Source of the DNA: an uncultured bacterium
GTDB taxonomy: Bacteria > Actinomycetota > Acidimicrobiia > Spongiisociales > ZC4RG35
Assembly: GCA_963825585.1 (NCBI GenBank)
Contig: CAWGTX010000007.1
Coordinates: 1,839 to 65,838 of the forward strand
Reading direction: 5' to 3'
Length of the DNA: 64,000 nucleotides
Below the pieces are notes generated by a model. The model was not told the origin of the DNA. It did not search any database and was given only the letters and a program-made list of their open reading frames with translations. Position 1 is the first letter of the stretch. Each line of letters starts with the position of its first letter. Below, piece by piece: positions 19,491 through 31,250 of this stretch. The position numbers and the translations under genes were made by a program.

Positions 19491-19787
19491 TCACCCGCCT
19501 GCCATCGCCCCGATGATCAGGTAGGGCTCGCGGCCTTGCACCACGGCGTCGGGCAAGGGCTCGTCCGGGTCTTCGTTCGAGAGGTCCTCCTCGCAGGCGA
19601 AGAACCGCACGAACGGGCGTCGTCGATCGGTGGACCGGTCACGGATGGTGCCGCCCAGCATCGGATAGGCCGCCTCGATGGCGTCGACCACGGCACGCTG
19701 GGTCACAGGCTCGGCGACGTCGAGTTCGATCTCGGCGCCGACACCGGCCAGGGTGCGGAGATGCTGGGGAAGCCTGACCCGGATCAC
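19491..19787 (-). CDS. MoaD/ThiS ubiquitin-like sulfur-carrier family protein
   Basis: Beta-grasp-sized protein (98 aa) ending in GAMAGG; [15 protein letters not shown]. Confidence 0.85.
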
Positions 19788-20902
19788 GGCAGCGTCTGCA
19801 CCTCGACCGAGTACACCGGTGGAAGGTCACGGACGATCGGCATCCAGGAGTCGCCCGCATCGGCCGAGGCGTACACCTGCCCGCCGGTGGTTCCGAAGTA
19901 CACGCCGCACTCGTCGAGGCTGTCGACGGCCATCGAGTCACGCAGGACGTCGACGTAGCAGTCCTGCTGGGGGAGACCATTGGTGAGCGGCTCCCATTCG
20001 TTGCCACCGGTCCGGCTCCGGTACACCCGCAGCTTGCCTTCCGGCGGGAAGTGCTCGGAGTCGCTGGTGATGGGAACCACGTAGACCGTGTCGGGCTCGT
20101 GGGCGTGGACGTCGACGACGAACCCGAAGTCGCTGGGGAGGTTGCCGCTGATCTCGTACCAGTTGTCTCCGGCGTCGTCGGTGCGCATCACGTCCCAGTG
20201 CTTCTGCATGAATATGGTGTCGGGCCTCGACGGATGCATGGCGAGCCGATGGACGCAGTGGCCGGTCTCGGCGTCGGGGTCGGGAAGCTCATAGGGAGAG
20301 ACCAGACCCCGGTTGGTCGCATCCCAGGTCCCGCCACCATCGTCGGTGCGAAACACCCCGGCGGCGGAGATTGCGATGTGCATCCGCTCGGGCCGGTTGG
20401 GGTCGATGACGATGGTGTGGAGCCCCAGACCTCCCGCTCCCGGCTGCCACCCCGGCGCCGACCGGTGCGTTCGAACCCCGGTGAGCTCGGACCAGGTCAT
20501 CCCACCGTCGGTGGACTTGAACAGAGCGGCGTCCTCGATGCCGGCGTACACCGTGTCGGCGTCGACCGGTGAAGGCTCGAGGTGCCACACGCGGGTGAAC
20601 GAGAACGGCCTCGGCGTGCCATCGAACCACAGGTGCTCGCCCGGATCACCGTCATAGAGAAACTCGTTGCCGACCGGGTTCCAGGTCTGGCCGCCGTCAT
20701 CGGAGCGCTGGATCACCTGGCCGAACCAGCCACCCGACTGCGATGCGTAGAGACGGTTGGGGTCCACCGGCGACCCGGTGACGTGAAACATCTCCCAGCC
20801 GCCGAAGAGCGGGCCTTCGACCTTCCAATCCTTGCGGCGTTCATCCGATGCGAGCACGAAGGCACCCTTCTTGGTGCCGACCAACACCCGCACGTCTGTC
20901 AT
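19784..20902 (-). CDS. BNR/Asp-box repeat beta-propeller protein (WD40/YVTN/sialidase-like)
   Basis: Repeated S/T-x-D-G-G-x-T-W boxes ([35 protein letters not shown]); no signal peptide. Confidence 0.85.
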
Positions 20903-20971
20903 CGGTGTCCTCCTCGGTTCAGACTTCCGAAGCTAGTACCGATCGCGTAGGAGTGCGCCGATGACGGACCG

Positions 20972-20997
20972 AGCGAGGAGCGAGGGGCGAGGAGCCG
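20972..20997 (+). repeat. CGAGGAG/CGAGGGG heptamer array
   Basis: GCGAGGAGCGAGGGGCGAGGAGCCGG. Confidence 0.6.
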
Positions 20998-21048
20998 GCA
21001 AGCGGATGCCCACGATCCGCCCCGTCAGCATTCGCCAACGGGCGACAG

Positions 21049-22125
21049 TCAGACGATCCCGGTAAGCGGGGACTCGCCGCTGACTGCGGGTTGATCGGCG
21101 AGTTGTTCGGTGCTGCAGGACTCGGGTTCGCGGTCGGGGCGCCAGCGCACCATCTTGGTGGTGCCACGGAACCGACCGGCGCTGGCCCAGGTGTAGGCGA
21201 CTTCCACCACCCGTTCGGGTCGGAGCGGGATCCAGGTGTGATCACGCTCGCCCGAATTGCTCCACCGGTTGGGGGCTCCCGGCATCGATCCGTCGGTGTT
21301 GGCGGCCGCGTCCATCCAACTACTCCAGGGATGCTCCGACATATCGGTCAGTGCCAGCGGTTCGAGCTCAGCAACCAGTTCCTTCCGTTGTTTGGCGGTG
21401 AAGCTGGCGGCCACGCCGACGTGCCACAACTGCCCGTCGGGGGCGTAGAGGCCGAGGATGAGCGAGCCCACCCCGTCGCCCGACTTGTGGATCCGGTAGC
21501 CGGCCACCACGCAGTCGGCGGTGCGGTTGTGCTTGAGCTTGAACTGGGTCCGCTTGTCGAACACGTAGCGGTCGCCCTTGGGTTTGATGATGAGCCCGTC
21601 GAGGCCGGCCGCCTCGGTGACGTGGAACCACTCCATCGCCAGCTGGGGATCGTCGGTGGCGGGCGCCAGATGCACCGGCGGTGCGAACCCGCCCGAGACG
21701 CCTTCCAACGCCGTCCGCCGTTCGGAGAACGGCAGTTCCAGCAGCGACAGGTCGTCGAGGGCGAGCAGGTCGAAGGCCACGAAGCCGGCGGGCGTCCGTT
21801 CGGCGAGCATGTTGACCCGGGATTCGGCAGGGTGGATGCGCTGGCCGAGAGCGTCGAAGTCGAGCTTGCCGTCGATGCTGACGATGATCTCGCCGTCGAC
21901 CACACACCGCTCGGGCAGGCTCACCTTGAACGGTTCGAGCATCTCCGGGAAGTAGCGGTTGAGCGGCTTCTCGTTGCGCGAGCCCATCACCACCTCGTCA
22001 CCGTCCCGGAACACGATGCAGCGGTATCCGTCCCACTTCGGCTCGTAGGACACGTTGCCGAGTGGGAGCTCGGGCACGGGTTTGGCCAGCATCGGCTTGA
22101 TCGGTGGCATGACGGGAAGATCCAT
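21049..22125 (-). CDS. ligC: ATP-dependent DNA ligase LigC
   Basis: PPIKPMLAK, YEPKWDGYR, VVDGEI, FVAFDLL, KLKHNRTADCVVAGYR, PLRPERVVEVAY, RWRPDR. Confidence 0.9.
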   Translation of the reverse strand: MDLPVMPPIKPMLAKPVPELPLGNVSYEPKWDGYRCIVFRDGDEVVMGSRNEKPLNRYFPEMLEPFKVSLPERCVVDGEIIVSIDGKLDFDALGQRIHPAESRVNMLAERTPAGFVAFDLLALDDLSLLELPFSERRTALEGVSGGFAPPVHLAPATDDPQLAMEWFHVTEAAGLDGLIIKPKGDRYVFDKRTQFKLKHNRTADCVVAGYRIHKSGDGVGSLILGLYAPDGQLWHVGVAASFTAKQRKELVAELEPLALTDMSEHPWSSWMDAAANTDGSMPGAPNRWSNSGERDHTWIPLRPERVVEVAYTWASAGRFRGTTKMVRWRPDREPESCSTEQLADQPAVSGESPLTGIV

Positions 22126-22185: not shown

Positions 22186-22854
22186 GTGGCGATCACTCTC
22201 GTTCTGGCCGAGGACAGCTTCCTCATGCGCGAAGGCATCACCGCCCTGCTGGCGCTCGACGACCAGCTCGAGCTGCTGGCCGGATGTGCGTCCTACGACG
22301 AGCTGATGGCCGCCGTCGAACTCCACAACCCTGAGGTCGTGATCACCGACATCAGGATGCCGCCGACCCAGACCGACGAGGGAATCCGGGCGGCGAACGC
22401 AATCCGAACGAGCCACCCGGGCACCGGCGTGGTGGTGCTGAGCCAGTACGTGGAACCCGCCTACGCGTTGAAGCTCTTCGAGCAGGGATCGGAGGGTCGG
22501 GCGTACCTCCTCAAGGAACGGGTCGCCGACCTCGACGAACTGGGTGCCGCCATCCGACGCGTCGCCCAGGGCGGATCGGTGGTCGATCCGAAAGTGATGG
22601 ATGCTCTGATCCAGTCGAACTCCGAGGGAGCCTCGACGATCCTCGATCGGCTCACCGATCGGGAGCGGGAGGTCCTCGCCGAGATGGCGAAGGGCGGCAG
22701 CAACGCCGCCATCGGCGAGGCACTCTTCATCTCTGCACGTTCGGTGGAAAAGCACGTCAACACCATCTTCACCAAGCTCGACCTCATTCCGACCGACGAT
22801 GTGAACCGTCGGGTCAGGGCCGTGCTCATCTACCTCGGAGTTGCGGGCGAGTAG
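22186..22854 (+). CDS. NarL/LuxR family DNA-binding response regulator
   Basis: LAED, ITDIRMPP (phospho-Asp), YLLKE, LTDREREVL...SVEKHVNTIFTKL. Confidence 0.95.
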   Translation: MAITLVLAEDSFLMREGITALLALDDQLELLAGCASYDELMAAVELHNPEVVITDIRMPPTQTDEGIRAANAIRTSHPGTGVVVLSQYVEPAYALKLFEQGSEGRAYLLKERVADLDELGAAIRRVAQGGSVVDPKVMDALIQSNSEGASTILDRLTDREREVLAEMAKGGSNAAIGEALFISARSVEKHVNTIFTKLDLIPTDDVNRRVRAVLIYLGVAGE

Positions 22855-22929: not shown

Positions 22930-23304
22930 ATGATGTCTGTGCGAGTGCTCATCGTGGATGATCAGAGGCCGTTTCGAGAGGCTTCGCGGATGGTCGTGGA
23001 AATGACCGACGGTTTCGAAGTCGTCGGCGAGGCCGAGAACGGCGAGGATGCCGTTTCCATGGCGTCGGATCTGCGGCCGGACCTGGTTCTCATGGACGTT
23101 CAGATGCCGGGAATCGATGGGCTCGAGGCAACCCGCAGGATCATGAGCCTCGATTCGCCACCTCGGGTGCTGGTGATGTCGACCCACGAATCGGGCAGCT
23201 ACGAAGAGCCGGCGCTGGCGGCCGGTGCCATCGCCTTCATCCCGAAGTCCGAGTTCAGCATGGACGCTCTGGAAACGTCCTGGGCTGCGGCGGTCGGAAC
23301 CTAG
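22930..23304 (+). CDS. Stand-alone receiver-domain response regulator
   Basis: VLIVDD, LVLMDVQMPGIDG, AFIPKS; no output domain. Confidence 0.9.
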   Translation: MMSVRVLIVDDQRPFREASRMVVEMTDGFEVVGEAENGEDAVSMASDLRPDLVLMDVQMPGIDGLEATRRIMSLDSPPRVLVMSTHESGSYEEPALAAGAIAFIPKSEFSMDALETSWAAAVGT

Positions 23305-25370
23305 GACGTACCGGCGACCGCCGCCGATATCGGCACAATCCCTGTGATGGTGGTGCCGACCCCTGGGGTGGAGTCGATGTGGATGGTTCCTCCGACGGTG
23401 TCGAGCCGGTCGGCGATGCCGTTCAGCCCCGCCCCGAGCTTCACCGTCTCCGGATCGAAGCCGTTGCCGTCGTCGGCCACCTCGAAGGTGAGCGCACCGC
23501 CACGTTCTGAAAGGGTGATGGCGACCGAGGAAGCGTCCGCATACTTCGTGGCGTTCTGCACTGATTCGAGGACCGAGAAGTACACGGCGGCCTCCACCTC
23601 CCGGGGGAACCGACCGCACCCCTCGCCCGAGATGGACACCGGAAGCGCGGCCGATCGCACCTGCTGGCGGATCGCCATCACCAGTCCCTCGGCCTCCAAC
23701 GTGGGCGGATAGATCCCGCCGGCGAAATCGCGCACCGCCTTGATGGCGTCTCCCGCCTGCTGCTCCAACTGACCCAACAGACTCGCGGTCTTCTCCGCCC
23801 CCGACTTCTCCGCCAACATCCGGGTCGGCCCCAACTTCACCTTCAACGCCACCAACTGCTGCTGCGGTCCGCTGTCCAGCGTGTGCTCCAACTCACGACG
23901 CGCCGCATCCGCCGCCACCAGCACCCGCTCACGCGACGCTTCCAACTCGGTCACCTGACGACGCAACTCACCCGTCAGCTGGGCGTTACGCAACGCCAAG
24001 CCCAACCCTGATGCCAAATCGGACAGCAGTCCCTCCTCGGCCGGTGTCACCGCCTCGCCCGCTTCCTTGACCAACGACAATCCGCCCAACAGCTCATCGT
24101 CGTGGAACACCCCCAGCGACCAATCCGCCTCGGGATCTGTGAAGGCATCGCCGCCGTCCAGTCGACGCAACCCCGCATCAGACGGCCAAACCGCCGCCGT
24201 TTCGAAGTGGTCGCCGCGTCGGGTCCACAGGGTCGCCGATCTCGCCCCGGTTCCGTCCACCATCCACTGGGGGATGCGTTCCAGCAGCTCCTCATCGGAC
24301 AGCTCGGACGAGCGATGAGAGAACCGGACCAGGATCTCGTGTGGTGTCGCCCGTTCGCCATAGACCAACCGGTTCGCCCAGCGCTGCAACCGTCGACGCG
24401 CCGGCTGGAAGGCCAACGCCACCACGACCGTCGCCACGATCGACAGCCCGAACCCGGCTTCGCCGCCGAGCAACCGACCCAATCCAACGACAGTGGCCAC
24501 GTACACCCCTCCGATGAACAGCGCCAACCCTCCGAAGGTCACCGACCGGGACAGGATGCGATCGATCTCGTACAACCGAAACCGAAAGATGGCGATGGCG
24601 ATGGCAATCGGAATCGCCAGGTAGATGACGGCGTCGAAGAAGGCGAAACCGCTCTCGTACGCTCCGAGCGGATCGAAGATGCCGTTGGAGATGCCGAGCA
24701 CGAAGTACAGCGCGCAGGCGAATCCGACCCATCCGATCTGTCGGCGTTCGACCGGCTCACTCCGGCGAGCCCTCATGATCAACCTGACTGCTGCCACGAG
24801 GAAGAAGATCAGGATGGGAAAGAACAAGACTTCGACGACTGGCCCCAGTGGATCTGCGATCTCGGCGTCGACGAACGGATGGGGGTAGCCCGAGCCACCG
24901 GGCTCCCCCAGGGCGCGGGGGCTCGCAACCAGTGCCAGGAGCGCCACCATCGACGTGTAGATCGCCGTCGCGCGGATGAACCTACGGTCCCACTCCGATG
25001 AAACCCGCCCGTAGGGAAACAGGAGGATCATCGGCACCTGGATCCAGGTGGCGAACTTGTCGATCGGACTGAACGCCCACGCGATCCAACTGGCGACTTC
25101 GACGTCACCCGCCTGGGCGTACCAGGCCGCCGCCACGTCTGCCGCGTGGATCGCATTCCACAGCACCCCGAGTGTCAAGAGCAGCGCACCAACGACGTTG
25201 CCGGGCTTCCGCACGACGATGATCGCCCCGATCGCCATGAAGGCACCGTTGGCAACGGCTTGTCCCCACGCAAGTGGCGTCCCCAGGAGCACGAGCGTCA
25301 CGGCCGCGGCGAGATACACGACCACTGCGGCCACCAGTGCGATCCGAACGCGTCGACTGAGAGTCGTCAT
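23301..25370 (-). CDS. Multi-TM HisKA_3-type sensor kinase with intact HATPase_c but no canonical phospho-His
   Basis: About 9 TM helices and a GAF-like region; H-box reads RELEHTLDSGPQQ; N box ESVQNATKYA, G1 ADDGNGFD, G2 GAGLNGIADR, STPGVGTTI. Confidence 0.85.
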   Translation of the reverse strand: MTTLSRRVRIALVAAVVVYLAAAVTLVLLGTPLAWGQAVANGAFMAIGAIIVVRKPGNVVGALLLTLGVLWNAIHAADVAAAWYAQAGDVEVASWIAWAFSPIDKFATWIQVPMILLFPYGRVSSEWDRRFIRATAIYTSMVALLALVASPRALGEPGGSGYPHPFVDAEIADPLGPVVEVLFFPILIFFLVAAVRLIMRARRSEPVERRQIGWVGFACALYFVLGISNGIFDPLGAYESGFAFFDAVIYLAIPIAIAIAIFRFRLYEIDRILSRSVTFGGLALFIGGVYVATVVGLGRLLGGEAGFGLSIVATVVVALAFQPARRRLQRWANRLVYGERATPHEILVRFSHRSSELSDEELLERIPQWMVDGTGARSATLWTRRGDHFETAAVWPSDAGLRRLDGGDAFTDPEADWSLGVFHDDELLGGLSLVKEAGEAVTPAEEGLLSDLASGLGLALRNAQLTGELRRQVTELEASRERVLVAADAARRELEHTLDSGPQQQLVALKVKLGPTRMLAEKSGAEKTASLLGQLEQQAGDAIKAVRDFAGGIYPPTLEAEGLVMAIRQQVRSAALPVSISGEGCGRFPREVEAAVYFSVLESVQNATKYADASSVAITLSERGGALTFEVADDGNGFDPETVKLGAGLNGIADRLDTVGGTIHIDSTPGVGTTITGIVPISAAVAGTS

Positions 25371-27463
25371 GAGAGCTCCGCCACCAGTTGGGTGGTCGAC
25401 GACACGGCGTCGATCGACTGGGGTGTCGGGAATCGCGCGGTGAGTTCGATGGCCTGATCCGCCGCATGAATCGAGAGGGTTCCACCGGCGGCGTCGACTC
25501 GGTCGTGGACGACGGTGACGTCGAGGTCTGTCGTTCCTTTCACATCGACTGTCATCACCAACTCACCGGCGAGGCCGGTGAGACCGACCGTCATCTGCGT
25601 CGCTCCCGACATGCGGGCCCGTTCGATCATCTCGAGCACCGAGAAGTAAACGGTCTCCTCGATCGGGCGTGGAAACCTGGCGACGTCATCGGCGCCGACG
25701 GTGAGGGGTATCTGCGAGGTTCGTTCGACCGCACGCAGGGCAGCCTCGAGACCCTCGGACTCCAACAACGGCGGATAGATCCCGTGGGCGACCGCCCTGA
25801 GCGCATCGACCGCCTGTTGGGTCTCCTCGGCCAACACCGACACCCGGGCGACGATGTCGTCGGCGCCTTCCCGTTCGGCGATGGTCCTGGCGATCCCCAA
25901 CTTCACCTTCAACGCGACGACCTGCTGTTGGGCACCGTCGTGGAGATTCCGTTCGAGACGATGACGCTCGGAGTCCTGCGCAGCGATCAGCCGCCGCCGC
26001 GACTCCCGCACCTCTTCCGCCCGCTTCTCCAACTCACGATTCAACGAGATGTTGCGCAACACCAACCCCGCACCGGCAGCGACATCCGCCAGCAAATCCC
26101 GATCGTTCGGACTGATCGGATCGTCGGGCGGTTTGGTGATGCTCACTGCACCGAACACGTCACCCCGATACACCACCGGCCGTGATGCTGTCAGCTCGTC
26201 GTCGACCAGACCACCAACAGAAACCGGTTCGATCGACTGGGATTCCCCACGGAAGAAGACCCCGTCAGGTGACAGCACGTCGTCGATCTTCAACCAGACG
26301 ACCGCCCGCTCGGCACCGGTCCCCTGGGCAAGCAACTGAGCGAGGTCGTCGGTGCCGTTGCCGATCGTCGACTCAGCCAGCCGGGAGGTGAGCTTTGAAA
26401 GCACCTCGTGTGGCGTGGCTCGCTCGCCGTAGACCAGACGGTCGGCCCAGCGCTGCATTCGGTCCCGGACAGGCTCGAACACCACCGCCACCACAGCCGC
26501 CGCCACGATCGGGAGCACCAGACCCGGCCCCTCACCATCCGACCGCCCAACCACGAGCAGCGGCAACACCACCACCGTTGCGTACAAGCCGGCGATCGTC
26601 ACAGCCAAAGCGAGGTAGGTCACCGACTTGGAAACGATGACGTCGATGTCGTAGAGGCGGTATCGGAAGATCGAGACGCTGATCCCGAGTGGTATCAACA
26701 CGATCGCCACGGCGTCGATCAGCAGGAAGGCGCTGTCTTCATTGCCGAGCGGGGCGATGGACACGTTGGCGATGAGAATCGTCAGGTTGAGGACGACTGC
26801 TGCGGCGATCCAGCCCACCTGGCGGCGCTCGATCGGATCGCCGTGACGCAGCCTGAGGACCAGCCTCACGGCGACGAAGTATCCGAACGCGAAGAACAGA
26901 AAGGTCAAGCCTTGAACGACGACGTAGAGGGGTTGAGCGATCTCGCTCGGGACGAAGGGGTGCGGGTACGCCTGGGTCTCGGGTAAGAGTTGGGGGGTGG
27001 CGAAGACGGTGGCGACCGTCACCACGGCCGCGAGTGCCCCGCTTGCCTGGAGGAGCCTCCGGTCTGTCTCCGTGGTGGGCCGACCATTGGGGAAGACCAA
27101 CCAGATGGCGGCGAGCAGCCAGAACGTAGGAGCGACCGGTACGACCGCTGCGAGGGTCATCCAGGCGGCGGCATCAAGACGTCCCGCCTGGTCGAGGGCG
27201 TCGGCCATGACGCCCAGCGCTGTCGACAGGGCCCACAGCGAGCCGTATGCCACGAGCATGAGCCCCAGCCGATTCTCCCGGCGCACCACGATCAGCCCAC
27301 CGACCAGGACGAAGGTACCGAAAGCGGTGAGGGTGGCGATCTCGTAGCTCCGTGACAGGACCAGGGAAACCACGACCGAAACGAGGTAGACGGCCACGCC
27401 GGCACGGAGAAGACGTCTCTGCCGAGTCCGGGGACCGGTGACCCGACCATCCGTCGGCATCAT
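25367..27463 (-). CDS. Multi-TM HisKA_3-type sensor kinase with intact phospho-His but degenerate HATPase_c
   Basis: Paralog of the neighbour (shared RLVYGERATPHE). H-box RLERNLHDGAQQ; N box reads EMIERARMS; no DDGxG or GxGL. Confidence 0.85.
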   Translation of the reverse strand: MMPTDGRVTGPRTRQRRLLRAGVAVYLVSVVVSLVLSRSYEIATLTAFGTFVLVGGLIVVRRENRLGLMLVAYGSLWALSTALGVMADALDQAGRLDAAAWMTLAAVVPVAPTFWLLAAIWLVFPNGRPTTETDRRLLQASGALAAVVTVATVFATPQLLPETQAYPHPFVPSEIAQPLYVVVQGLTFLFFAFGYFVAVRLVLRLRHGDPIERRQVGWIAAAVVLNLTILIANVSIAPLGNEDSAFLLIDAVAIVLIPLGISVSIFRYRLYDIDVIVSKSVTYLALAVTIAGLYATVVVLPLLVVGRSDGEGPGLVLPIVAAAVVAVVFEPVRDRMQRWADRLVYGERATPHEVLSKLTSRLAESTIGNGTDDLAQLLAQGTGAERAVVWLKIDDVLSPDGVFFRGESQSIEPVSVGGLVDDELTASRPVVYRGDVFGAVSITKPPDDPISPNDRDLLADVAAGAGLVLRNISLNRELEKRAEEVRESRRRLIAAQDSERHRLERNLHDGAQQQVVALKVKLGIARTIAEREGADDIVARVSVLAEETQQAVDALRAVAHGIYPPLLESEGLEAALRAVERTSQIPLTVGADDVARFPRPIEETVYFSVLEMIERARMSGATQMTVGLTGLAGELVMTVDVKGTTDLDVTVVHDRVDAAGGTLSIHAADQAIELTARFPTPQSIDAVSSTTQLVAELS

Positions 27464-28764
27464 GTCTGCCTCGGTGGGAAGCGGTGGGCACCGACGGCGG
27501 TATCACGGCCTTTGACCAGCGCCGGCTCCAGCACGTCCGCTTCGGGTTGCCACTCGATCGCCTGCCACGTCGGCTCACTGAGGACCGTCTCGCCGGGCTC
27601 GGCCCACTGCTGCAGCCGCTGGGTGAGGTTCACGGTGTCGCCGACGACCGAGTACTCCAGCCGCTCCTCGGATCCGAGCAGGGCCGCCGCCACCAACCCG
27701 GTCGACAGCCCGATGCCCAGTCCGAAGGGATCAAGCCCATCGGATTCCCACCGCTGATTGAGGTCGGACTGGGCTGTGTGCATGGCGATGGCGGCAGCGA
27801 CCGCCCGATCGGCGTGGTCGGTTTGGGCTACCGGCGCCCCGAACACCGCCATGACGGCGTCGCCGACGAACTGCATGACCGTCCCCCCCTCCCCGAGGAT
27901 GGCGCGGTTCATCGCCGCCCGATGTTCGTGGAGCTGGCCGGCCAGGGCGCTCGGTTCGGCGTGCTCTGCGATGGTGGTATACCCCCGGATGTCGGACATG
28001 AGCACTGTGACGATCAGTTCCTCGGTCTCACCGGGGCGGCGGCCCTCGCCGATGATCTGTGCCGCCACCCCGCCGGGTAGGAGCCGGCCGAGCGCTTCGC
28101 CCTGCTCCCGACCGTCGACTATGGCCCGCTGGAGCATCTTGAGACGGTCGAGACTGTCGGAACGCCCGGCGGCGAGCCCCTCGGCGAGCTTGCCGAACAA
28201 CGCCTCGATGGCGGCGTTGGCATCGGAGGGGGTGGTGGCGAGGTGGGCCGCGATCGCCTTCACCGTCCGCCCCTCGGCCACCAGCCTCAACAACTCCTCC
28301 TCACCGCTCGACAGTGAGCCGTCGGCCCTGACCGGGTTGACCAGGCCCTCGACGATCTTGGAGTCGAGCAGCGACCCGCCGGCCGCCACCTCACGCACCG
28401 CCCGCGCCAGCTGATCGCCTTCACCCACCCGGTCCTTCAGCAGGTAGGCGTATCCGGCGGCGCCCTCGGACAGCAACGAGACGGCGTAGTCGGGGTCGTC
28501 GAACTGCGAGAGGATCACGACGCCGGTTCCCGGGTGGCGCTTTCGGACCTCCTTGGCGGCATCGATTCCCTCACGCGAGAAGTTGGGCGGCATGCGGATG
28601 TCGGTGACGATCACCTGCGGACCGGTGGCCTCGGCGCCGGCCACGAGCTCGTCGTAGGCGCCGGCTTGACCCACGACCTCGAAGTCGTCCTCGAGCTCGA
28701 GCAGGGCCTTGACTCCCTCCCGCACGATGAGATTGTCATCGGCCAGGAACACGGTGATCGGCAT
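27460..28764 (-). CDS. Receiver / LuxR-like HTH / class III nucleotidyl cyclase fusion
   Basis: REC: FLADD, VTDIRMPP, YLLKD. HTH-like: LSSGEEELLRLVAEGRTVKAIA. Cyclase: MSDIRGYT, MQFVGDAVMAVFG, GIGLSTG, EYSVVGDTVNLTQRLQ. Confidence 0.9.
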   Translation of the reverse strand: MPITVFLADDNLIVREGVKALLELEDDFEVVGQAGAYDELVAGAEATGPQVIVTDIRMPPNFSREGIDAAKEVRKRHPGTGVVILSQFDDPDYAVSLLSEGAAGYAYLLKDRVGEGDQLARAVREVAAGGSLLDSKIVEGLVNPVRADGSLSSGEEELLRLVAEGRTVKAIAAHLATTPSDANAAIEALFGKLAEGLAAGRSDSLDRLKMLQRAIVDGREQGEALGRLLPGGVAAQIIGEGRRPGETEELIVTVLMSDIRGYTTIAEHAEPSALAGQLHEHRAAMNRAILGEGGTVMQFVGDAVMAVFGAPVAQTDHADRAVAAAIAMHTAQSDLNQRWESDGLDPFGLGIGLSTGLVAAALLGSEERLEYSVVGDTVNLTQRLQQWAEPGETVLSEPTWQAIEWQPEADVLEPALVKGRDTAVGAHRFPPRQT

Positions 28765-28968
28765 GACAGACCTCTCGGGACGATGGAACGTGTCGCCATC
28801 TTGGCCGGTCACCGGGCGATTGCCCAGCGTGCGGGCTCGCAGTCTCGAGGTGGTGCCAGCACCCATGCGTCGAAGGGCCATCACCCTGGCGCGGATCCGA
28901 CGAGGGGCGCACATTGGGACCTACAACCCGAGCCCGACATCACCGGCCGACCACGAGAGGAGAGGGCG

Positions 28969-29376
28969 ATGAGCGATCTGAAGGCGCTGTCACAGCGCAT
29001 GTACGACGAGATGGCGGCGGGTGCCGACATCGATGCGATGGCAGAGCGGTATCTGGCGGAGGACTACGTCGACCACGAGCTTCCCGGGTCGAACCGCGAG
29101 GCTGCGGTCGAGATGTTCAACATGGCGCACGCGGCGTTCCCCGACTTCCGTATGGAGGTCGTCGAGATGCTGCAGGACGGTGACAAGGTCGTTGCCCGTC
29201 TCAGGATGCGGGGAACCCACCAGGGCGAGTTCATGGGCATACCGGCCAGCGGCAACCCGATCGACGTGGCCGGGATCGACATCAACCAGTGGCGGGACGG
29301 CAAGTGCATCGCCCACTGGGGCGTCACGGACTTCGCGGCAATGATGCAACAGATCGGCGACGGGGCTCCTGCCTAG
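28969..29376 (+). CDS. SnoaL-like ester cyclase (NTF2 fold)
   Basis: AFPDF...GDKVVARLRMRGTHQGEFMGIPASGN...DGKCIAHW. Confidence 0.9.
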   Translation: MSDLKALSQRMYDEMAAGADIDAMAERYLAEDYVDHELPGSNREAAVEMFNMAHAAFPDFRMEVVEMLQDGDKVVARLRMRGTHQGEFMGIPASGNPIDVAGIDINQWRDGKCIAHWGVTDFAAMMQQIGDGAPA

Positions 29377-29400: not shown

Positions 29401-30405
29401 ATGCGCATCGAACACACCATCGCCACCGTGTCGTGGATCCCATCCGACCTGCTCGAAGGCATGGGCAAGGCGGCCACCCGGATGAAGCTGGCTCATCACG
29501 ATCCGCCGCCGCCCGACGATCTCGGCGACGACGCGCACGCCACGCTCGAGGGGCTGCGGGCCAACGACCGTTTCCGCTTCGCCAACGAGCTGCGGGCCTA
29601 CATCGAGGTCGACGACAGCGGGACCATCACCGATTCCGGCTACTCCGGTGGAGGCCTGATGGGGGCCACCACCGTGGGGCTGGGCGTGGGCTCGATCACG
29701 GTGCCGGCGGTCAGCCTCCCCGACCTCCGGTCAGAACCCGAGGCCGCGCCGGGAGCGGTCCGCTTCACCCAGACCACTGGGGGCAGGACCGGCGCACCCA
29801 TGCCCCGGGCGGTGAAACATCCGCCATTCGTGCAGTTCTTCGCCCCGAACGTGTGGACGACGGTGGAACTGACGATCAACGCCGACGGCACCCACACCGG
29901 CGGCCTGATCGGGGCATCGGGTTTCCCGCGGCATTGGGTGTTCGACGACGGCACCCTGGTAGCCAAGAGCAGCGTGGCGGAGTACAAGAAGTGGATGAAC
30001 GAGTCGTTCGGACGGAGAACGCCGTGGGGTGACGAGGACTCACCGGCCCTCGTCACCGAAGTGGAGACCCTGCTCGAGCGGCAGTTGCAGGAGCGGATCA
30101 TGCGAGGCGACCACAAGCCCGAGATCCGGCGGATCTCCCAGGGAGACACCCTGGTGGAACAAGGGTCGGCGAGCGAGGAACTGTTCCTCCTGCTCAACGG
30201 GGTGCTGGTGGTGGAGGTCGATGGCGAGAAGCTGGCCGAGCTGGGTCCGGGGGCGGTACTCGGTGAGCGGGCGGTCCTGGAAGGAGGGTCCCGGACGGCG
30301 ACGCTGCGAGCGGTGACCGACTGCAAGGTGGCGGCGGTTCCGCCGGACGGGATCGACCGTCAGAAGCTGGTCGAGCTGTCGACGGGCCATCGGCGCGAGG
30401 AGTAG
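29401..30405 (+). CDS. cNMP-binding domain protein with an unrecognised N-terminal domain
   Basis: C-terminal GDTLVEQG, LFLLLNG, LGPGAVLGERAVLEGGSRTATLRA phosphate-binding cassette. Confidence 0.85.
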   Translation: MRIEHTIATVSWIPSDLLEGMGKAATRMKLAHHDPPPPDDLGDDAHATLEGLRANDRFRFANELRAYIEVDDSGTITDSGYSGGGLMGATTVGLGVGSITVPAVSLPDLRSEPEAAPGAVRFTQTTGGRTGAPMPRAVKHPPFVQFFAPNVWTTVELTINADGTHTGGLIGASGFPRHWVFDDGTLVAKSSVAEYKKWMNESFGRRTPWGDEDSPALVTEVETLLERQLQERIMRGDHKPEIRRISQGDTLVEQGSASEELFLLLNGVLVVEVDGEKLAELGPGAVLGERAVLEGGSRTATLRAVTDCKVAAVPPDGIDRQKLVELSTGHRREE

Positions 30406-31250
30406 TGCGGATCCATGTGTGCGGCGTCCGGGGGTCCACCCCGGCGCCCGGCCCCGAGTTCGTTGAAGTTGGTGGCAACACGTCGTGTCTCGCCATCGCC
30501 CACGACGACGAGGACGCCCCTCGCCTGATCCTGGATGCCGGGACCGGCATCCGACGGGTTGACGCGCTCCTGGAGGGTGGGCCATTCGCCGGCACGATCC
30601 TGCTCGGTCATCTCCATTGGGACCACACGCAGGGCCTGCCGTTCTTCCGGAGCGCTGACCGTCCGGACGCCACGACCCGCCTGCTGGTGCCCGAGCAGGG
30701 CGCCCCGGCGATCGACCTGCTCCGGCGGTTCATGTCACCTCCGGCCTTCCCGATCGAACCGACCGGGCTCAACGGTTCGTGGTCGTTCGACTCGATCGCC
30801 GAAGGGACACACGCCATCGAAGGCTTCGAGGTGGTCGCCCGAGAGATCCCACACAAGGGCGGGCGGACGTTCGGGTATCGCATCAGCGATGGCCACGCCG
30901 GCTTCGCCTATCTCTCCGACCACGGCCCGGCGGGCGTGCTCGGACCCGGACCGGACGGGTGGGGGCCCTACCACGAGGCGGCGATGGACCTGTGCCGCGG
31001 GGTCGACCTGTTGATCCACGATGCCCAGCACACCTCCCAGGAACTGCCTACCCAGGCGGCATACGGGCACTCAGCCCTCGACTACCCGGTGGCGCTGGCG
31101 GAACGATGTGGTGTCCCACGGGTTCTCCTGTTCCATCACGCCCCGGGCCGCACCGATGCCGAGGTCTCCGACATCGAACGGTCAATGGCCGACAGAGGTA
31201 CGGTCGCCACCGAAGCGGCTCGCGAGGGCACGACGATCGAGCTCGCCTAG
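30405..31250 (+). CDS. MBL-fold metallo-hydrolase, putative cyclic-nucleotide phosphodiesterase
   Basis: GVRGSTP, GGNTSC, LDAGTG, HLHWDHTQG, LIHDAQ, GHS, LFHHAP; stop/start overlap with the cNMP gene. Confidence 0.85.
   Translation: MRIHVCGVRGSTPAPGPEFVEVGGNTSCLAIAHDDEDAPRLILDAGTGIRRVDALLEGGPFAGTILLGHLHWDHTQGLPFFRSADRPDATTRLLVPEQGAPAIDLLRRFMSPPAFPIEPTGLNGSWSFDSIAEGTHAIEGFEVVAREIPHKGGRTFGYRISDGHAGFAYLSDHGPAGVLGPGPDGWGPYHEAAMDLCRGVDLLIHDAQHTSQELPTQAAYGHSALDYPVALAERCGVPRVLLFHHAPGRTDAEVSDIERSMADRGTVATEAAREGTTIELA

Follow-up and report, generated by a model that had tools for sequence, protein, structure and literature searches.

In a window of 64,000 nucleotides (the whole stretch of DNA that was analysed, part of contig CAWGTX010000007.1 of assembly GCA_963825585.1; coordinates are relative to the window), a gene on the minus strand at 27460..28764 encodes a 434-residue protein that joins a receiver domain (REC), a relic LuxR-type helix–turn–helix (HTH), an element resembling a cyclase transducer element (CTE) and a class IIIb nucleotide cyclase domain. 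Judged by its sequence, this protein behaves as a putative receiver-regulated class IIIb cyclase, and it departs from canonical adenylate cyclases (ACs), canonical guanylate cyclases (GCs), the Rv0386 type of Mycobacterium tuberculosis and the Pycsar cyclases. The site whose Lys or Glu is the basis for annotating class III cyclases as makers of cyclic AMP (cAMP) or cyclic GMP (cGMP) carries Gln. We give about an even chance to the reading that the protein is a kinase-switched cyclase making mainly cAMP, with a probable side activity on GTP, for a dedicated receptor.

The counts below come from two samples: 121 aligned proteins—the query plus its best 120 homologues, 65–97% identical, from a search in which 6990 of 7998 scored candidates fell below E 0.001—and the best 80 loci of a named-genome search, in which at least 304 of 596 pattern matches encode a relative. 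These 80 loci lie mostly in Acidimicrobiia and other Actinomycetota, plus Dormibacterota. The family was not found in the open-access literature, subscription journals lying outside that search.

The reading frame of the gene is free of stops. A longer version starting at 28914, as proposed by an open-reading-frame finder, was rejected in favour of 28764 because most close homologues are 434 aa long and match from residue 1, and because GAGAGG sits ahead of the ATG. In the 434-aa protein, Pfam recognises Response_reg at residues 5–105 and Guanylate_cyc at residues 252–422 (PF00211, E 9e-21) and does not detect GerE; no NCBIfam model reaches its cut-off. The receiver (residues 3–128; 28381..28758, minus strand) bears D9, D10, the phospho-acceptor D55 (28600–28602), S86 and K110, and the invariance of D55, S86 and K110 in 80/80 loci is that of a phosphorylatable receiver. 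The cyclase domain (residues 250–430; 27475..28017, minus strand) holds D258 in SDIRG, D302 in MQFVGD, N379 and R383 in NLTQR and K418 in VKGR; the first four residues are invariant across the 80 loci, as is K418 in the 77 of 77 that cover it, so that the metal Asp pair and the NxxxR pair read from these motifs by the first-pass annotation stand. N379 and R383 are the Asn and Arg of the transition state, and K418 is the phosphate Lys. Foldseek places the AlphaFold model of the protein—predicted local distance difference test (pLDDT) 81.6, predicted template modelling score (pTM) 0.49—on Cya2, CyaC and CyaB with a root-mean-square deviation (rmsd) of 1.6–2.3 Å, and together with Pfam this supports a class IIIb cyclase homology fold with both metal Asp residues.

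Within this fold, Q298 (codon CAG, 27871..27873, minus strand) aligns gap-free with the Lys of DKFVGD in CyaB of P. aeruginosa (3r5g) and CyaC of S. platensis (1wc0), as well as with the Glu of DEFMGD in Cya2 of Synechocystis (2w01). Gln had been proposed to occupy the adenine-selecting Lys position, and the alignment with these solved ACs and GCs places it there. The family thus shows neither the Lys of canonical ACs nor the Glu of canonical GCs: Gln is present in 121/121 aligned proteins and 80/80 loci, and two codons are in use for it (CAG 74, CAA 6 across the loci), which argues against chance or an assembly error. Being invariant in all 80 loci, Gln is a character of the clade, and among the 150 cluster representatives listed it is found in 64 of the 78 alignments that span the site. 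The second specificity site, Ser372 (27649..27651, minus strand) in EYSVVG, aligns with the Thr of CyaB and CyaC and the Gly of Cya2, and in the close family it is always Thr or Ser and never Cys (Thr 62 and Ser 59 of the 121 proteins; Ser 42 and Thr 38 of the 80 loci). As about half of the family has Thr, Ser372 is ordinary, and its description as a second non-canonical residue falls away. In the published rule, as given in the accessible part of PMC7384201, Lys with Asp/Thr selects ATP, and Glu with Cys/Ser selects GTP. The earlier suggestion that the product may not be only cAMP hence keeps one of its supports—a Gln truly at the specificity site—but loses the deviating Ser, and use of CTP or UTP is unlikely because, among solved structures, purine cyclases match best, at E ~1e-30 versus 0.003 for the Pycsar cyclase 7r65.

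The known systems mark out where this protein stands. With the class IIIb enzymes CyaB and CyaC it shares the fold, the metal Asp pair, the N/R pair and a Thr-type second site; unlike them, it has Gln for Lys, and its regulatory half consists of an entire NarL-type regulator whose HTH is a relic. CyaC is under receiver-domain control. Cya2 is the best match in both sequence and structure and also has a residue other than Lys at the same site, but where Cya2 has Glu, Gly and Tyr, the present family has Gln, Thr/Ser and Gln. The analogy with Rv0386 drawn at first is weak. Rv0386 belongs to class IIIc and has Gln where canonical ACs have Lys, paired with Asn at the other specificity position. Alike are the joining of a cyclase to a LuxR HTH, in a protein described with an alternative substrate-binding mode in passages of PMC3466318 and PMC9552081. 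Rv0386, however, lacks a receiver and has its cyclase at the N-terminus and its LuxR HTH at the C-terminus, the reverse of the REC–HTH–cyclase order found here, and the present cyclase is of class IIIb with Gln/Thr(Ser).

The Gln clade has relatives of the same REC–HTH–cyclase build with Lys at the specificity site (P0134, P0135, P0147). A search covering 401 genomes returned 27 loci of this sister clade, 25 of them with Lys (Lys/Thr), one with Glu (L084) and one with Gln, and two members of the Gln clade carry Ala; across the wider family, the first base site is occupied by K, Q, E or A. In a quick cyclase tree of 148 of 202 rows, left after removal of near-duplicates, a long branch (0.97, SH-aLRT 99) parts the Gln clade from its Lys relatives, with a midpoint root distorted by P0263 and with P0241 and P0219 looking frameshifted or chimeric. 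Gln/Thr is probably a recurring state of these sequences, since L097 falls outside the main Gln clade, as do the GAF cyclases that L256 represents on a long branch. The membrane-GAF class IIIb cyclases (L252:2260-4014; L256, L257, L259) carry Gln/Thr, lie near the same receptor family (GEM type) and probably gained Gln independently. A clade fixed for Gln, a sister clade that is built alike but has Lys, and naturally occurring variants with Glu or Ala make up a test series for the Lys/Glu rule; the Glu, Gln and Ala variants in this architecture are L084 (G365), L097 (G196), L108 (G051) and L165 (G231). Further Gln-type cyclases of ~600 aa (P0150, P0153, P0157 and others) bear, instead of the receiver, a membrane N-terminal half that resembles the sensor half of a HisKA_3 kinase, and one of these matches HisKA_7TM.

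Several lines point to cAMP as the main product: the Lys/Thr pocket of the sister clade, a second site that never turns to Cys, a receptor without the β5 Arg in 96/96 rows and Gln in place of the Cya2 Tyr, a residue that raises GC activity according to the available portion of PMC4215837. In that same source, the Ma1120 double mutant K101E/D157T still prefers ATP (kcat/Km 3.16 vs 0.23). Other observations pull away from a mainly cAMP-making enzyme. Gln is invariant, lies across a long branch from the Lys relatives and is not plainly needed for cAMP synthesis; the receptor is found with one clade and rarely with the other; the genome holds a separate Lys-type cyclase (C1:987243-989249); the receptor has a PKG-like Thr and Arg cap; and the linker helix is of low confidence in the model. 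The two Gln-clade members with Ala count here too, as they suggest that the Gln side chain may be dispensable.

Much of this bears on the receptor, a cyclic nucleotide-binding (CNB) protein at 29401..30405 on the plus strand, present in 70/80 loci and modelled with pLDDT 91 and pTM 0.88. Its C-terminal CNB domain resembles many binders of cAMP and of cGMP to about the same degree. In the N-terminal domain (29401–30100, ~220 aa), many residues are invariant; it has no Pfam family, and its sole fold match among the 50 rows listed is BAS0735 (3c5p), a protein of unknown function (Z 12.4, rmsd 3.6, 173 aligned). Like the CNB-D domain of Plasmodium PKG, the receptor has the GE-R and R-T of the phosphate-binding cassette: G288-E289-R290 and R298-T299 are present in 66/66 covered loci and match E483, R484 and T493 of PfPKG. 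Unlike PfPKG, it has an unrelated output domain, and the position of the β5 Arg (R473) is A279, with Arg in 0/96 rows. The distribution of the receptor follows the cyclase type, in that it occurs in 17/19 Gln-clade versus 2/30 Lys-clade genomes and, within family f23, in 6/7 Gln versus 0/8 Lys genomes—counts to which related genomes contribute non-independently and in which not every genome is complete—while the Lys-clade loci have the kinases and the regulator in 20/20 and the full receptor in 2/20.

From these features arises the strongest rival: the change from Lys to Gln would have made a GTP-preferring enzyme, and the cassette would be a private cGMP channel insulated from cAMP. We regard this as possible, though the less probable case. 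Gln is isosteric with the Glu by which guanine is read at N1/N2, and the accessible part of PMC7384201 names Ser among the second residues of GCs; the best match in the PDB is the GC Cya2; and the tracking of the Gln clade by the receptor, its R290 and T299 and the Lys-type cyclase elsewhere in the genome would all suit a channel of its own. The likeness to Cya2, however, is at the level of the fold only, as CyaB and CyaC score nearly as well. The guanine-specific residue of PfPKG, the β5 Arg R473, is the one absent from the receptor, whereas the cap that the receptor shares is not cGMP-specific (both from an excerpt of PMC4412288). At position 290 the receptor has Arg beside 14/14 Gln-type REC cyclases and Met beside 4/4 Lys-type ones; co-evolution of R290 with the cyclase Gln was nevertheless not accepted as proof, because all three Lys-linked receptors of the tree belong to a single clade and there are counter-examples, Arg-less receptors occurring with Gln-type cyclases as well (G213, G187, G257; L252, L256, L257, L259). 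A wider form of the idea, in which Gln/Thr(Ser) would be an unrecognised guanine-favouring class IIIb code and the cassette a self-contained cGMP pathway in Actinomycetota and Dormibacterota, is somewhat more doubtful again. If it were true, a heterodimer of split kinases with two inputs, an AND gate, would phosphorylate a transcription factor turned cyclase, and the cGMP made would reach a PKG-like Arg-cap receptor with unknown output. To our knowledge, bacterial cGMP pathways have rarely been described.

It is improbable that the cyclase is weak or inactive and that the phosphorelay uses it as an output that binds nucleotides or acts as a scaffold. Ma1120 K101E, which lacks the Lys, has ~92% less AC activity at pH 7.5, as stated in the accessible part of PMC4215837, and the variety of residues at the specificity site (K, Q, E and A across the wider family) likewise speaks for this reading. 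The catalytic residues are nonetheless without exception in the loci that cover them, and a receptor with an intact phosphate-binding cassette accompanies the cyclase in 70/80.

The HTH (residues 151–193; 28186..28314, minus strand) sits in an N-terminal half that had been described as a whole NarL-type regulator with an eroded recognition helix, and the comparison bears this out. Residues 3–193 are 42% identical to the NarL-type regulator of the same cassette (E 9e-54), and this half also aligns with DevR, DesR and NarL. Between 48 cassette NarL regulators and the 80 cyclases, the hydrophobic HTH core is retained, whereas none of R159, N173, R185, E188, K189, H190 and N192, each found in 47–48 of the 48 regulators, remains in the cyclases. 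The charge of the recognition helix shifts from +0.4 in the regulators to −2.3 in the cyclases, where no segment is less conserved (0.64 vs 0.80–0.84 for cyclase and receiver), so that the conserved recognition helix of NarL/LuxR regulators is missing. With these near-invariant surface and DNA-contact residues lost and a recognition helix that is acidic and poorly conserved, DNA binding by the cyclase HTH is unlikely. The gene would be an example of a transcription factor put to new use as an enzyme switch.

What the HTH might do instead is suggested by the segment that follows. The model places the HTH helices at residues 153–163, 168–174 and 179–198, and the last helix of the NarL regulators, RRVRAVL, maps gap-free onto DSLDRLK, in the register of LuxR helix 10. 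Model and alignment extend this into a long helix (residues 202–226) and a CTE-like element (residues 227–240; together 28045..28161, minus strand), where pLDDT is 40–63, and residues 202–240 align with the pre-cyclase part of 6fht. The CTE label follows from position, by comparison with the accessible text of PMC9552081, which reports CTEs as needed for signal transmission. From the helix register we infer a relay role through helix 10, with the HTH as a dimerisation linker; a dimer prediction for residues 148–232 gave a median of 0.40 vs a mark of 0.42 and was used neither for nor against it.

A shade less probable still than an inactive cyclase is a bifunctional protein that links cyclase output with transcription through an HTH still able to bind DNA, for example at an upstream palindrome. 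In favour are the preserved HTH fold, a GerE match that persists in 2/120 homologues and a conserved palindrome that does lie upstream. Against this stand the state of the recognition helix and the intact NarL paralogue in the cassette as the simpler binder. The palindrome, GGTG-N4-CACC (28852–28863), belongs to a symmetric element at 28825..28888 with inverted CAG(C/G)GTG arms, which is a candidate operator for the cassette NarL regulator. Its core is found in 56/78 upstream regions versus a shuffle mean of 8.5 (max 17), a count that is partly circular because these regions also supplied the pattern; in the genome, the full pattern has no match beyond this one except a loose site on C9. A sigma-70 promoter scan of 28700–29000 gave no match.

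Least probable is a cyclase that uses pyrimidine nucleotides in anti-phage defence of the Pycsar kind, a reading rejected here even though the PADLOC PycC and PycTIR profiles match the cyclase and CNB domains, as these matches span only shared domains (in the receptor, the CNB domain alone), the 7r65 score falls far behind those of purine cyclases, the context is two-component, and the receptor has no TIR match, no membrane segment and no membrane effector domain, so that a PycC-clade cyclase beside a CNB-TIR or CNB-transmembrane effector is not what is found.

The switch in the preferred reading, a kinase-controlled cyclase making mainly cAMP, would lie in two membrane HisKA_3 kinases with complementary defects. 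Kinase 1 (25367..27463, minus strand), whose start overlaps the cyclase stop (ATGA), has the H-box His508 (LHDG, 25940–25942), and its ATPase N and G boxes are absent; kinase 2 (23301..25370, minus strand) has Asp499 in place of the His (LDSG, 23874–23876) and intact N, G1 and G2 boxes. Acceptor His and ATPase hence reside on different proteins. Of the 66 loci whose H-box was scored, 23 combine the two halves and lack an intact kinase, 29 show neither half-type and carry intact kinases, and 14 are partial or mixed; the complementary pair recurs mostly in Acidimicrobiia. Asp replaces His in 30/36 His-less boxes. A kinase with His and without ATPase occurs in 27 loci and has its partner in 23, the remaining four being a contig end and three apparent frameshifts, and Pfam confirms the split pattern for the three pairs to which it was applied, an intact kinase serving as the control. 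Trans-phosphorylation is a feature of HisKA_3 kinases, DesK among them, and Rv0600c/Rv0601c of M. tuberculosis is a split kinase. Acceptor and ATPase on separate proteins are likewise known from CheA3/CheA4 of R. sphaeroides, as described in part of PMC3591291. Unlike in these two systems, the pair in the window consists of full-length paralogous membrane sensors that both keep the two domains, one of them degenerate in each, and could offer a clear example from nature of a kinase formed as a heterodimer of two sensors.

For the cAMP-making cyclase, the following course can be proposed. The two kinases would heterodimerise, as their complementary motifs suggest, and kinase 2 would phosphorylate the His of kinase 1. 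The phosphate might then move to D55 of the cyclase and to two other receivers, whose acceptor residues are intact in sequence, and receiver activation would run through the helix pair to align the cyclase homodimer. Its Gln/Thr(Ser) pocket could hydrogen-bond either purine, with ATP favoured. The divergent upstream CNB protein would read the signal, and a hydrolase of the metallo-β-lactamase (MBL) fold might remove it.

These partners recur around the cyclase. In the 80 loci, with short contigs scored as misses, the neighbours are a HisKA_3 kinase in 72, a cyclic nucleotide-binding gene in 70, a lone receiver in 53, a NarL regulator in 50 and an MBL hydrolase in 29. In the window, the stand-alone receiver protein lies at 22930..23304 and the intact NarL-type regulator (REC + GerE), a paralogue of the N-terminal half of the cyclase, at 22186..22854, both on the plus strand. 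The MBL-fold hydrolase (HLHWDH; 30405..31250, plus strand) is a candidate phosphodiesterase with weak matches to models of RNase Z and cyclic-nucleotide phosphodiesterases, all below cut-off. Between cyclase and receptor lies a SnoaL-like ester cyclase gene (28969–29376), common to 1/80 loci (L015), and the cassette is followed at 19784–22125 by an ATP-dependent DNA ligase and a BNR-repeat gene, the ligase being linked in only 1/80 loci. Elsewhere, the genome encodes six other CNB proteins, a tandem-domain cyclase-ATPase (C10:372864-375836) and a cyclase-like gene in two frames (C1:1047808-1051222).

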